A stretch of DNA of 64,000 bases from Escherichia coli (GCF_041886205.1 NZ_CP169029.1); one strand, 5' to 3'. Positions 49,701 to 55,700 are shown, counted from the stretch's first letter. Numbers are program-made.

Positions 49701-52700
49701 TGGTTATCCAGCTTCACTTTCAGTAATTTCGCGCCTGCCTGCCAGAGTGTTGATGCACTATTGGCCATCTGATCAGGCGTACCGATGACTACCGTCTGTG
49801 CAGTGATAACTGTCTCGGGAAGCGTTATGCCGATCAAATCAGCCAGCGATTGCTGCTGTTTTCGCGCGGCCAGATCCCACAATGCACAATCCAGCGCATT
49901 ACGTGCTGCGCCGGCAGGGAGAATTTTTTGCAACTCCTCCCGTGTCAGCCCTTTCTCTAATTGCGACACGACGCTCATAATTTGCGCCATTACCGAGGCA
50001 TCACTTTCTCCATAACGCGGATACGGCGTGCATTCGCCGGTGCCTTTAATACCCTCTTCTTCCAGTTCAACCACCACCACGCGCGCTTCACTGCGACTTC
50101 CCCGGGCAATCACAAACGGGGTATGTAAGGGCCAGGCTTCCTCAAATACCTTAACGGTTCTCATCTTTACTCCTTGTTGTCGCGGTGGTCTGCGGATTAA
50201 GCGCAAATAGCGTTTGCTGTGTTATTGACAGTTAGCATAAACTAGGTGTGACGTTAACTATATGTAAACAGGAAAGATAATCATGTCACAAACCGTTCAT
50301 TTCCAGGGCAACCCGGTTACAGTCGCCAATTCCATCCCGCAGGCGGGTAGCAAAGCGCAGACTTTTACTCTCGTGGCAAAAGATCTGTCTGACGTCACCC
50401 TCGGTCAGTTTGCGGGTAAACGCAAAGTGCTGAACATTTTCCCGAGTATTGATACCGGTGTTTGCGCCGCATCAGTACGTAAGTTTAACCAACTGGCAAC
50501 TGAGATCGACAACACCGTTGTGCTGTGTATCTCTGCCGATCTGCCGTTCGCCCAGTCTCGTTTCTGCGGCGCAGAAGGTCTGAACAACGTTATCACCCTC
50601 TCCACTTTCCGTAACGCTGAATTTCTGCAAGCTTACGGTGTGGCAATTGCTGATGGCCCACTGAAAGGTCTGGCAGCGCGTGCCGTTGTGGTTATTGACG
50701 AAAATGACAATGTGATTTTCAGCCAGCTGGTGGATGAAATCACCACCGAGCCGGATTACGAAGCAGCTCTGGCTGTACTGAAAGCATAATTTAATATGCC
50801 TGATGGTGTTGCACCATCAGGCATATTCGCGCTTACTCTTCGTTCTTCTTCTGACTCAGACCATATTCCCGCAACTTATTGGCAATCGCGGTATGTGAAA
50901 CGCCGAGACGTTTTGCCAGTTTGCGCGTGCTGGGATAATTGCGATAAAGCTGGGTTAATACCGAGCGTTCAAAACGGCTGGTGATTTCGTCCAGCGAACC
51001 TTCCATCGCATCTTCGCCCACGGCTACCGTTGCGGCGTCATAATCCGGCAACAAAATATCCTGTGGACGCAGCTCATAACCGTCCAGTTGTGTCAGTGCG
51101 CGATAGATAGCGTTCTTTAACTGCCGCACATTTCCCGGCCACGCACAACGCGTAAGTACAGTATTCAGGTCAGCGGCCAGTTTCGGACGCGGCACGCCCT
51201 GCTCGTCGGCAAAGCGGGCGACGAACAGCTCAGTTAACGGCATGATGTCCTGCGGACAGTCACGTAGCGGCGGCAGATTGAGCGTCAACACGTTCAGACG
51301 ATAATAGAGATCTTCACGGAACATGCCTTTTTGCACCAGTTCGACCAGATTCTTCTGCGTAGCACAAATCACCCGCACATCGACATGCACCTCATGGTCT
51401 TCGCCAACCCGACGGAAAGTGCCATCATTAAGGAAACGCAGTAATTTCGCCTGCATCCGTGGTGACATTTCCCCTATTTCATCCAACAGCACCGAACCAC
51501 CGTTCGCCTGCTCAAAGAATCCTTTCTTCCCTTCCGGAGCATGACCAAACAGTTCACTCTCGACCGCATCTTCCGGTATAGACGCACAGTTCAGCGCCAG
51601 GTAAGGTTTGCCCGCTCTGGGGCTTGCCTGATGGCAGGCGTAGGCAAAGAGATCTTTACCTGTACCTGTGTCACCCGTAATCAGCAGCGGCGCGCTTAGC
51701 ATCGCCAGTTTCTGCGCCTGTTCGACAACATGCTTCATTTTCGGGCTGACGGCGACAATTTGACTGAAGGCGCTGACGTCCTGGGCGGCGACATTTTGCA
51801 ACTGGCGGCCCATACGAATCGTTGATCGCAACATCACCACCGCACCGGTCAGGACGTGTTGATCATTTTCATCCTGAAGATAAACAGGCGTAATCTCCAT
51901 CAGGAAATTCTGCCCATTAATAACGACATGCTCGTTATGGGAATCTTGCGGTTCGCTTTCCAGCCAACGTAAAAAATTAAAGCCGTTAATCAATTGTGCG
52001 GCGGTATGGTTGCGCAGGCGATCCAATTTTTGCCCAAAAAGCTGACAGCTCGCCGGGTTCGCCATATCCACTTTGCTTTTCATATCGACAGAGAGCACAG
52101 GTTCGGGCAACGCCTCCAGTAACGCGCTCAACGCCAGATGCTCACGTTCGGAAGGCATCCACGGGACAGTACGCACATCGGTAACACCTGCAATACGGCG
52201 TATTTCGGCCATCAGACTGCTGAAACTCTCAAACTCCAGTTCAGCAAAATTGAGGTAGATTCGCCCAATGGGATCAATCTCAATACCGCGTAAATCAATG
52301 CCTCTTAGCACGAGTAGATCGAGTAATTCGCGGGTCAGACCGAGTCGGTCTTCACAAAAGACTTCCAGACGCATGGGAACCTTCACCTGAAAAAAGAACA
52401 ATTAATATGATGATATGACACTATTTGGATAGCAGGAAGGTTTCTGTCAACAATCATTGACACAAAGACGGAAAAACGGGCACTTCGGCGTAAAGATATC
52501 CGGTCAGCACCCGATATTGCATTATTTTTCGCTGGGCGTTTTGCCTTTTTGCAGCGTTTCTTTCACCTGACCGATAAGCTGACGACGGAAATCCCCGAGG
52601 CGAGGTTTGTCATCGTCAATCCACGGCAGCGGGCGGCAAAGCTCCATAGCTTTAATCCCGAGTCGTGCCGTCAGAAGTCCAGCACCAATTCCCTGAGCTG

Positions 52701-55700
52701 CGCGGGTAGACAAACGAGCAGCGAGATCTTGCGACATCCAGTCCATCCCCACTTCGCGCACCAGTTCGCTGGCTCCGGCAAAAGCGATATTCAGCAATAC
52801 CAGCTTAAACAGACGCAAACGGCTGTAATACCCCAGTTCAATGCCATACAGCGTGGCGATGCGATTAATTAAACGCAGATTGCGCCAGGCGATAAACGCC
52901 ATATCGACCAACGCCAGCGGGCTGACCGCAATCATCAACGTTGATTCCGCCGCCGAACGGCTGATTTCGCGCCGCGCCTGGGCATCTAAAACTGGCTGGA
53001 CCAAATGCGCATACAAACTGACCACTTCACGGTCGTTTTGCGTTTCATGGATTGAGGCATACCAGCGTTGTAGCGCTGGATGAGACTGATCAATACCCGC
53101 CTGCTGCGCCAGTTTTTCGCAAAATGCGCGGCCTTTGCCCGTGCCGTGGCTATGCAATAAATCACGCGCTTCGTCGCGTTCATGGGCGCGCTGTCGCAAG
53201 CGCCATAAGCGCCGCCACTCTGTTACCACAGAACCTACGCCAGCGCCGATAATCAATGCCCCAGCGGCACATCCACCCAGCGCCACCCAGTCCTGGGTTT
53301 GCCAGGCATTCATTGTCCACTGTACACCCTGCCCGACAACGCTTGCGCCAAACAGAGCCAGCCCGCCCATCACCATTTTGCGCCACAGGCTGCGTTTCGG
53401 ACGTAACGCTGCGTCCATTACCGCTTCGACTTGCCCCTCTTCTTCCTGCGCTTCGTCGAGCGTGGCCGGGGCAAAATTTTGCGCCTGATTTTCGTCAAAG
53501 GTCTGCTGCGCCCTGAATTTAGGATTCTGATCGACCTCCAGAGGACCGTCGAAATCAATACGTGGTTTTAACGGTTCGGTCATCGCAATTTATCTCCTAT
53601 TAAAAATTCCAGCGCAGCATCAAGACGAATATGCGGTAGTGGTTTGTCGACATCCATCACCTGCGGACGAAATGCCTCAAACTGGAAGCCTTGCTTATCC
53701 CAGAACGCCTGACCAGGCAAACGTGCGGGAACTTCGCCAGGATAAACAGTGAGCGGTGCGCCATCGCTAAGTCGATTACCACGCAGCGCCGGGATTTTCT
53801 CACCGTTAACATCAATAATGCCGCTGGTGGTCGCCTGAACTGACGCCAGCCCCAGGCAGTCCATGCTGATCCCTTCGAACGCCGCATTTTGCCAGGCATC
53901 CTGAATCAGTTGTTGCAGTAATGAAACCATATTAGCGTGCTGATCGATGGTCACATGGTCCGCTTTAGTGGCAGCAAACAATAGCTTATCGATAACCGGC
54001 GAAAACAAACGCCGGAACAGGGTACGCTGCCCGTAGTGAAAACTTTGCATCAGCTGCGTCAGTGCCAGACGCATATCATTAAATGCCTGTGGCCCACTGT
54101 TGAGAGGTTGCAGGCAATCCACCAGCACAATCTGGCGGTCAAAGCGCAGAAAATGATTCTTATAGAACCCCTTCACCACCTTCTCGCAGTAATAATTAAA
54201 GCGCTCGCGCAGCATTCCGGCATTGGTATGCTTATCGGCCTGCGCCAGTTTGGACTCGCCCCAGGTATCGACATCCGGCCACGGGAAGAATTGCAGCGCG
54301 GGCGCACCTGCCATATCTCCCGGCAAGACAAAGCGCCCAGGCTGAATAAAGTGCAGCCCCTGCTGTTTACAGTGGTGGAGATAATCGGTCCACGCGGCGG
54401 CAATGTCCGCCAGCCGGTTTTCGTCGGCAGGCGCTAGCGGGTCAAGTCCTTCGCACATCATTCGCCATTTCGCCGACCATTCGCCGCGCTGACCATTGAG
54501 TAAGCCCGTCATCTGGCGCGACCAGCTTAAGTAATCCTGCGCCAGCATCGGCAGGTCGAGCAGCCATTCGCCGGGATAATCCACAATCTCCAGATACAGC
54601 GTGGAGGTGTCTTTGAAGTGGCGTAGCAGCGAATCGTTCGATTTAAAACGTAGCGCCAGGCGAATTTCACTGACGCCGCGCGTAGGCGTCGGCCAGGCGG
54701 GAGGATCGCCATATAACTGCGCCAGTCCTTCATCATAGGTGAAGCGCGGAATGCCAAAGTCACGCTGAGGAATGCGTTTTACGCCCAGCAGGCGCTCTTC
54801 ACGCACCGCGCTTAACAGCGGCAAGCGTGCTCCGGCGTGAATATTGAGCAACTGATTGACCATCGCAGTGATAAACGCTGTTTTGCCGCTGCGGCTTAGT
54901 CCGGTTACGGCGAGGCGCAGATGTCTGTCGACACCCCGATTCACCAGCGCATTGAGTTCATTTTTAAGTCGCTTCATTGCTGTCCTGTGCTGCTCTGAAG
55001 ACCAGAAAAAAATCATTCGTAAGGATATGAATGTGGGGGCCAGGCCATTGATTATCAACTGCCCGTGTTGTCATCGACGGGCGAACTCCATAAGATGTGC
55101 ACCATTCACGTTCGGACGGAGTTCCTGACCTATGTCCCCTACTATTTATGATATTGCCAGGGTTGCAGGCGTATCAAAATCCACCGTATCACGCGTGCTG
55201 AATAAGCAAACTAATATCTCCCCGGAAGCGCGCGAAAAAGTGTTACGGGCCATTGAAGAATTACAGTATCAGCCAAACAAGCTGGCCCGCGCGCTGACCT
55301 CTTCGGGTTTTGATGCCATTATGGTGATTTCTACCCGTTCGACCAAAACTACGGCGGGTAATCCGTTTTTCTCTGAAGTTTTGCATGCCATCACCGCCAA
55401 AGCTGAAGAAGAAGGTTTCGACGTGATATTGCAGACGTCGCACAACCCGGCAGAAGACTTACAAAAATGTGAAAGCAAAATTAAGCAGAAAATGATTAAA
55501 GGCATTATTATGCTAAGTTCGCCAGCGGATGAGTCATTTTTTGCCCAACTCGATAAATACGATATTCCGGTGGTGGTGATTGGCAAAGTTGAAGGTCAAT
55601 ATGCCCATGTTTATTCTGTCGATACCGATAATTTTGGTGACAGCATTGCGCTAACCGATGCATTAATTGAGAATGGACATAAAAACATTGCCTGCCTTCA

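Follow-up and report, generated by a model that had tools for sequence, protein, structure and literature searches.

What does the ycjX-ycjF gene pair (ycjXF) do for the cell? The two genes are among the better-conserved stress-induced gene pairs of Gammaproteobacteria without an assigned cellular role, and they are considered here as they occur in a stretch of 64,000 nucleotides (nt) of Escherichia coli DNA (GCF_041886205.1, NZ_CP169029.1), referred to below as the window. The reading favoured here, to which a probability of roughly 55% is given, is that YcjX is a stress-induced guanosine triphosphatase (GTPase) switch that the tail of YcjF anchors to the inner membrane, that is co-produced with YcjF by coupled translation, and that acts in the inner-membrane stress response. 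We infer three parts of this reading: that translation of the pair is coupled, that YcjX and YcjF form a physical complex, and that the tail serves for docking.

The mechanism proposed would operate as follows. Both proteins would be made from one messenger RNA, on which ribosomes ending ycjX at its TGA would restart at the overlapping ATG, helped by GGAG located 10 nt upstream. By such coupled translation the GTPase YcjX and its membrane partner YcjF would appear together, YcjX as a cytosolic switch binding guanosine triphosphate (GTP) and YcjF as its membrane receptor or effector. At its tip the tail of YcjF carries a short conserved motif, K-x-R-I-x-F, and this would dock onto YcjX, probably as an added beta-strand. 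Docking would tether YcjX to the inner membrane, and its GTP or guanosine diphosphate state would control the DUF697 membrane domain. Expression in E. coli would be directed by a sigma-32-type heat-shock promoter directly 5' of ycjX, and in many other Gammaproteobacteria ycjXF would form the distal end of a sigma-54/PspF-controlled pspABC(D) operon. It is from these two circumstances, the sigma-32 promoter in E. coli and psp operon membership elsewhere, that ycjXF is assigned to the inner-membrane stress response.

Open reading frame calls resolve the interval 52522-54977 into two minus-strand genes, the strand having been missing from the sequence-only reading of this DNA:

53580..54977, minus strand: ycjX coding sequence, ATG at 54977, 465 amino acids plus stop, TGA at 53582-53580; DUF463/YcjX-family GTP-binding protein
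52522..53583, minus strand: ycjF coding sequence, 353 amino acids plus stop; DUF697/TIGR01620 protein, predicted to be in the inner membrane (K-12 b1322 annotation)

The mechanical reading frame of ycjX extends to a TTG at 55058; the annotation places the start at ATG 54977 (MKRLKNEL). RefSeq labels the genes ycjX and ycjF, with tyrR downstream and a divergent ycjW upstream. Of 5426 complete E. coli genomes, 5416 have a match to the ycjXF region of 2.9 kb, and several E. coli chromosomes carry it with 100% identity. The locus is the chromosomal E. coli ycjX-ycjF operon (b1321-b1322 in K-12). Relative to K-12, ycjX has 28 nucleotide differences and only two amino-acid differences (C175S and Q205E), and ycjF has eight and none, respectively, which indicates purifying selection on intact genes. 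The pair had been described from the sequence alone as ordinary and intact, and so it is: YcjF is 100% identical to its K-12 counterpart, YcjX differs at 2 of 465 residues, and the ycjXF of this strain is already catalogued, with no unusual feature.

In a search of Pfam, YcjX matches PF04317 (DUF463) with E 1.8e-181 and 604 bits (cut-off 25), residues 20-464 covering profile positions 1-443 of 443, i.e., the full length of the family. Three nucleotide-binding motifs are located as follows:

54879..54902, minus strand: codons of the P-loop (G1), GLSRSGKT, YcjX residues 26-33, found by motif search
54567..54581, minus strand: codons of the Walker B motif (G3), DYPGE, YcjX residues 133-137, found by motif search
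53958..53969, minus strand: codons of the guanine-specificity motif (G4), TKAD, YcjX residues 337-340, a variant of NKxD

Among 71 orthologs, G26, G31, K32 and T33 of G1 are invariant, DYPGEWLLDL is 100% conserved (with E137 invariant), and K338, D340 and H341 are invariant in the G4 region, position 337 being T or S. YcjX also matches the solved YcjX of Shewanella oneidensis (PDB 6NZ4/6NZ5/6NZ6) with E ~1e-124 and 47% identity, and agrees with this family member, an ortholog of another order carrying small insertions, in homology and fold. The structures 6NZ4, 6NZ5 and 6NZ6 are said to come from Tsai et al. [quoted passage not shown] Because of the solved ortholog and the presence of G1, G3 and G4 together, YcjX is considered a GTPase and not just a P-loop nucleoside triphosphatase (NTPase). 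By homology and motifs it is a large GTPase whose G domain, of extended-Ras type, has the fold with G1, G3 and an NKxD-type G4 that mark the Ras-like/extended-Ras (TRAFAC) group. The sequence-only reading had called YcjX a P-loop NTPase of unclear biochemical role; the NTPase part stands and the cellular role is still unassigned, but the description of its biochemistry as unclear is dated in view of the solved Ras-like ortholog and the G motifs.

The nearest G domains are those of Rag, Arf/Arl, Sar1 and SR-beta; sequence identity is 13-19% to the membrane-recruited GTPases and 10-19% over the small-GTPase subfamilies compared. Membership of a named small-GTPase subfamily was considered and rejected, as YcjX has 465 residues with helical and beta insertions, against a single G domain of ~20 kDa, and no small-GTPase Pfam family is found in it even at E<=10. 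It was likewise rejected as dynamin-like, a class having stalk and paddle in one chain with a dynamin-type G domain, a combination not found in YcjX.

YcjF matches PF05128 (DUF697) in Pfam (E 1.2e-55, 188 bits, cut-off 27.7) and TIGR01620 in NCBIfam (E 1e-129, 433 bits, cut-off 160), the latter over 327 of 329 profile positions. The families DUF463 and DUF697, which had been named from the sequence alone, are thus both recovered by profile search; no other Pfam family is found for either protein even at E<=10, and neither Pfam, NCBIfam nor PADLOC names a well-characterised enzymatic function. The parts of YcjF that matter here are:

53551..53571, minus strand: codons of the tail motif L-K-P-R-I-D-F, YcjF residues 5-11, the proposed YcjX docking peptide
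53218..53388, minus strand: codons of a putative transmembrane helical hairpin, YcjF residues ~66-122, from hydropathy with Arg/Lys-rich flanks
52561..53037, minus strand: codons of the DUF697 domain, YcjF residues 183-341, Pfam envelope

The N-terminal tail (residues 1-68), probably cytoplasmic, is acidic, with a net charge of -6, and mostly disordered. Two segments with positive flanks exceed the hydropathy threshold. In the AlphaFold2 model of YcjF by itself, the protein is all-helical, with a mean predicted local distance difference test (pLDDT) score of 85.6 and with helices 66-95 and 99-144 at pLDDT >90; the hairpin is followed by a helical cytoplasmic segment and then by the DUF697 region with further hydrophobic helices. 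Within the DUF697 domain, D200, D227, R234, Y246, G298 and R317 are invariant in an alignment of 108 sequences. In the tail, positions 5, 9 and 11 are hydrophobic in 80-100% of 71 orthologs, and the rest of the acidic tail is variable; its conserved anchors are the hydrophobic positions 5, 9, 11, 23, 29 and 37, together with E53 and P62. As far as the alignment tells, this pattern of conservation is that of short docking motifs.

Relatives of YcjF number 1472 at E<=1e-3 among 1.84 billion representative proteins, and a word-indexed protein search returns close enterobacterial relatives only. Longer members of the YcjF family have no extra domains besides DUF697, although in other phyla DUF697 may occur in fusion with GTPase domains. 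The few matches with additional Pfam domains (P0004 and P0010) are single-sequence entries of 96-100% identity, apparently gene calls joined in error.

The junction of the two genes reads AAA TTG CGA TGA CCG, and has two elements:

53580..53583, minus strand: ATGA overlap, read in the sequence as the ycjF ATG (53583-53581) and the ycjX TGA (53582-53580)
53594..53598, minus strand: Shine-Dalgarno-like AGGAG, 10 nt before the ycjF ATG and in the last codons of ycjX (..I-G-D-K-L-R); putative ribosome-binding site

The 4-nt overlap claimed for the pair is thereby located at 53580-53583. Its conservation was followed by a scan for YcjX in species-representative genomes, which gave at least 595 loci; 80 of them, from Gammaproteobacteria (Enterobacterales, Vibrionaceae, Aeromonas, Alteromonadales and Halomonadaceae), were kept for context counts. 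The gene directly downstream of ycjX is ycjF in 72 of these 80 genomes, and 61 of the 72 adjacent pairs have an RTGA overlap, the others having a gap of 1-11 nt, or of 30-68 nt in some Aeromonas. Distant YcjF homologs from other assemblies have DUF463 directly upstream in four of four cases, with an overlap of 4 nt in three and of 7 nt in one. Together with the matches in 5416 of 5426 E. coli genomes, this adjacency agrees with the wide conservation claimed earlier, for which a co-occurrence analysis had been proposed as a check. Of 63 overlapping junctions, 54 have GGAG at a distance of 10 nt upstream of the ycjF ATG; it arises there from the synonymous choice of GGA for a conserved glycine in the C-terminal ...GDKL motif of YcjX. 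The pair therefore has a stop/start overlap and an internal ribosome-binding-site-like sequence, both conserved in orthologs, and this anatomy supports translational coupling. Of the statement that the genes are translationally coupled, the anatomy is confirmed (61/72 for the overlap, 54/63 for GGAG), and the coupling itself is a reading of that anatomy.

The association of the pair with stress starts from the region just upstream of ycjX:

55031..55058, minus strand: sigma-32-like promoter, -35 TTGATA at 55058-55053, N14, -10 CCCCACAT at 55038-55031; predicted start ~55028-55024

This element was found by a pattern search; judged by the sigma-32 consensus TTGAAA-N13-15-CCCCATNT, it has two mismatches to TTGAAA-N14-CCCCATNT, and it ends 54 nt before the ycjX ATG. 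Across four genera the -35 TTGATAA does not vary and the -10 stays C-rich; this holds for Escherichia, both with and without the sugar-catabolism island described below, and for Citrobacter and Enterobacter, whatever the upstream gene. The search for a sigma-32 promoter, which the sequence-only reading had advised, thus finds a conserved motif directly upstream of ycjX, but one that is not above chance by match alone. A sigma-32 promoter of ycjX is on record (Nonaka 2006, as cited in Huvet 2010), a heat-shock gene table in the literature includes ycjX, and infection by phiX174 raises both ycjX and ycjF at the RNA and protein level. With the reported promoter and this induction, the stress association that had been claimed for the pair is well founded.

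A second sigma-32-like string, TTGATA-N15-CCCCACAT, lies on the plus strand at 15229-15257. It was rejected as a promoter, being inside prophage tail genes and almost certainly due to chance, and its occurrence shows how weak the consensus search is when taken by itself. A sigma-70 scan is uninformative for ycjX.

The second line of evidence for a stress role is synteny. Most of the 80 genomes have the order pspF <-> pspABC(D)(E)-ycjX-ycjF-tyrR, in agreement with published accounts (Huvet 2010; Popp 2022), and the ancestral order is, judging from this synteny, pspFABC(DE)-ycjXF-tyrR. In Yersinia, Serratia, Pantoea, Rahnella and Morganella the gap between pspD and ycjX is 8-26 nt, leaving no promoter space; pspD abutting ycjX fits the situation in Y. 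enterocolitica, where pspABCD-ycjXF is one operon under PspF/sigma-54 control. Both K-12 and the window have the divergent ycjW upstream of ycjX (154 nt away in the window) and beyond it the ompG/ycjM-V sugar cluster. This ~14-kb sugar-catabolism block (ycjM..ycjV-ompG-ycjW) lies between pspE and ycjX and interrupts the ancestral order in most E. coli; its part within the window (ycjW, ompG, ycjV ... ycjQ) occupies 55132-64000. E. albertii and 373 of the 5426 complete E. coli genomes are without the block and have pspE directly followed by ycjX; in the 373 genomes ycjX adjoins pspE with promoter space. The homology between island-bearing and island-less sequences starts at the -35 TTGATAA, which puts the block after the pspE terminator and before the ycjX promoter. 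Psp-operon membership, taken as a position directly 3' of pspC/D/E on the same strand with no promoter space, does not apply to ycjX of the window.

The same synteny also speaks for the likeliest of the alternatives, according to which YcjXF would be a nucleotide-driven accessory module of Psp. Anchored in the membrane, the GTPase would serve to recruit, regulate or recycle the ESCRT-III-like polymer PspA where the inner membrane is damaged, and the pair would be an ancestral psp member that is separately sigma-32-controlled in E. coli. Consistent with this, pspABC(D/E) is directly 5' of ycjX on the same strand not only in most of the 80 genomes but also in two of four distant contexts, the pspE-ycjX adjacency recurs in the 373 E. 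coli genomes and E. albertii, and the Yersinia operon is pspABCD-ycjXF. Moreover, the co-variation of YcjX and PspA distances exceeds the TyrR control (partial r 0.80), and ycjX/ycjF rise together with the psp genes in phiX174 infection. However, DUF463 is present in 14% of Psp-null genomes (Popp 2022), the link of ycjXF to psp is looser than the links of the psp genes among themselves and the promoters are separate in E. coli (Huvet 2010), the ycjXF loci of Vibrio, Salinicola, Agarivorans and several Pasteurellaceae have no adjacent psp genes, and robust phenotypes in Yersinia come from PspF, A, B and C only. A function within Psp is on balance unlikely. Its boldest form, which is improbable, would make YcjXF the missing nucleotide-powered partner of the ESCRT-III-like PspA system, encoded by the last two genes of the ancestral psp operon, with YcjF serving as membrane sensor and, via its tail, as docking site.

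Whether the two proteins act together was approached by structure prediction and co-variation. AlphaFold2 was given the fused input YcjX-(G4S)6-YcjF with 35 diverse paired sequences from the loci, and the model of 848 residues has a predicted template-modelling score (pTM) of 0.74. One rigid body of 465 residues would give ~0.5, a value that was reasoned and not computed, so that the relative position of the two proteins appears to be set in the model. In the fused model a beta-strand forms at YcjF residues 9-11 (of RIDF), the 10-residue block having a pLDDT of 78 against 63 in the YcjF-only model, and residues 18-53 stay disordered. In a mirror-tree comparison, the distances of YcjX and YcjF vary together more closely than in the TyrR control (partial r 0.76 vs 0.35 and 0.30). 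A direct YcjX-YcjF complex is likely on these indirect grounds and on the conserved anchors of the tail, and the model suggests that the N-terminal tail of YcjF docks YcjX.

These data also bear on the simpler and rather unlikely possibility that the genes are only co-expressed. The targets of YcjX would then be soluble ones, for instance ribosomes or clients of protein quality control, YcjF would have a membrane function of its own, for example as a channel or transporter, and the overlap would reflect compact operon packing. Overlaps of 4 nt are, as is generally known, common in bacterial operons; in addition, some Pasteurellaceae tolerate the separation of ycjX and ycjF, and the literature groups YcjX with the sigma-32 heat-shock genes, a mostly cytosolic set. 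What argues for a joint function is an adjacency that extends from Enterobacterales to Alteromonadales (72/80) and to four of four distant homologs, a pairing that is kept more stably than the linkage to psp or tyrR (Huvet 2010), a co-variation that exceeds the control, the fused AlphaFold2 model with its relative placement of the two proteins, and tail motifs of YcjF that are conserved without other obvious reason.

Several observations count against the preferred reading of YcjX as a switch tethered by YcjF. Non-polar ycjXF deletions in Yersinia have no robust phenotype, and the literature cited here has no experiment showing YcjX-YcjF binding. The fused AlphaFold2 run is a linker-fused monomer with a shallow alignment of 35 sequences, without predicted aligned error, coordinates or a negative control, and its confidence varied over five models (pLDDT 69-77). 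The mirror-tree comparison uses non-independent species pairs and gives an equally good correlation for YcjX and PspA. No structural relatives of YcjF were found in PDB, so that its activity cannot be read from its fold. The sigma-32-like motif, with its two mismatches, is not above chance in the window, where four such matches are found and 1.9 expected. Finally, inserted genes part ycjX and ycjF in two Pasteurellaceae loci (L066 and L074), and in four Haemophilus/Pasteurella loci (L063, L067, L068 and L072) there is no ycjF within 8 kb of ycjX, which indicates that coupling is dispensable. Adjacency of ycjX and ycjF is strongly preferred, yet not obligatory.

Very improbable is a biological-conflict (anti-phage or abortive-infection) system of DO-GTPase type with YcjF as membrane-damaging effector, since, although the psp-linked GTPase has been termed 'DO-GTPase family' (Ravi et al. 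2024), YcjX has the family-defining glutamate after Walker B (DYPGE) and ycjXF is induced in phage infection, no PADLOC model matches YcjX or YcjF, the locus is core and syntenic in 5416/5426 E. coli and under purifying selection, being neither variable nor island-borne, there is a single GTPase gene with no GAP1-like three-domain partner and no variable effectors, and the neighbours are housekeeping or stress genes.

The sequences that flank the two genes contain further features:

54978..55030, minus strand: ycjX 5' leader, containing UUACGAA with an adenosine at 55020
52375..52521, minus strand: ycjF-tyrR intergenic region, 147 nt, identical to K-12

In K-12, position NC_000913.3:1384073, within UCAUAUCCUUACGAAUGAUUU, is listed as 'ycjX-5p' in the supplement of PMC13170351, with TadA adenosine-to-inosine editing in 3-15% of reads. 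The string UCAUAUCCUUACGAAUGAUUU is also present in the window, on the minus strand, with its adenosine at 55020. Island-less E. coli lack the leader motif UUACGAA, as do E. albertii, Citrobacter and Enterobacter, so that editing at 55020 is probably incidental. No Rfam match is found in 52200-55400, and the ycjX leader has no strong structure (about -4.5 kcal/mol). An inverted repeat on the minus strand, GGAACTCC ... GGAGTTC, at 55085-55131, takes up ~40 nt of the ycjW-ycjX intergenic region, and may be an operator of YcjW (LacI family) or a structure of the ycjW leader.

The spacer between ycjF and tyrR contains a palindrome, TGTCAA-N6-TTGACA, which is a candidate TyrR-box-like element. A terminator scan finds no terminator-like hairpin between these genes, which is consistent with the transcription unit ycjX-ycjF-tyrR reported in RegulonDB, as quoted in Huvet 2010. 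PgrR is listed as a regulator of ycjXF-tyrR. Colinearity with K-12 stops just past mpaA (window ~48371, corresponding to position 26724 of the K-12 locus L001), and the mpaA junction lacks the K-12 genes ymjC-ymjD-ycjY-pgrR, the closest complete genome having mppA directly after mpaA. With pgrR missing beside mpaA and PgrR among the listed regulators, this strain may lack the PgrR input. Upstream, on the minus strand, ycjV (57199-58281) is an intact open reading frame of 360 amino acids for an ABC-transporter ATPase, where the K-12 annotation has the pseudogenes ycjV and ymjB.

Other genera add their own variants. In Vibrio (L050-L060), where no psp genes are adjacent, a terminator-like hairpin is common to most loci, and after it comes a conserved TTTTTTGTTCATCT..GATTAA, at ~60-100 nt 5' of ycjX; ycjXF may have here a control region of a third type. 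Among the Pasteurellaceae, the insert between ycjX and ycjF comprises a gene for an OmpA-like lipoprotein and an insertion-sequence-type transposase in L066 (9404-11494), and an opposite-strand open reading frame of 303 amino acids in L074 (9431-10384).

The leads that this locus adds are the YcjF tail motif predicted to dock the GTPase, the history of island insertion, the conserved GGAG, and two control regimes, in which ycjXF is read either from its own sigma-32-type promoter or by read-through of the sigma-54 psp operon. If the link to Psp is functional, a membrane-repair system that now has no nucleotide switch would receive one from ycjXF. These leads are useful for the long-standing functional question, and the locus itself is not novel.

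YcjXF can be compared with several known systems. The DO-GTPase/GAP1 systems, many of them membrane-proximal, are defined by a conserved Walker B glutamate (Kaur et al. 2020) that YcjX has in common with them; they differ in having a GAP1 partner, frequently a second paralogous GTPase, and variable effectors, none of which is found in ycjXF, where the downstream gene encodes a helical membrane DUF697 protein. The likeness to Sar1-Sec12, SR-beta, Arf/Arl and Rag-Ragulator is one of mechanism only, i.e., a GTPase recruited to a membrane by a dedicated partner, and YcjF resembles none of the partners of Sar1, SR-beta, Arf or Rag. The K-12 pair has identical gene lengths, 4-nt overlap and 147-nt ycjF-tyrR spacer, and a near-identical promoter and leader; the differences are a synonymous divergence of 2% in ycjX, a T7 run here in place of T8 in the leader with two substitutions farther upstream, and, in the surroundings, an intact ycjV here and the absence of ymjC-ymjD-ycjY-pgrR beside mpaA. 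The pspABCD-ycjXF operon of Yersinia enterocolitica has the same genes, the same order and the same ATGA overlap (Yersinia loci L020, L022 and L041); in Yersinia, however, ycjX begins 8 nt from pspD, whereas ycjX of the window has the divergent ycjW upstream and a sigma-32-like promoter of its own.

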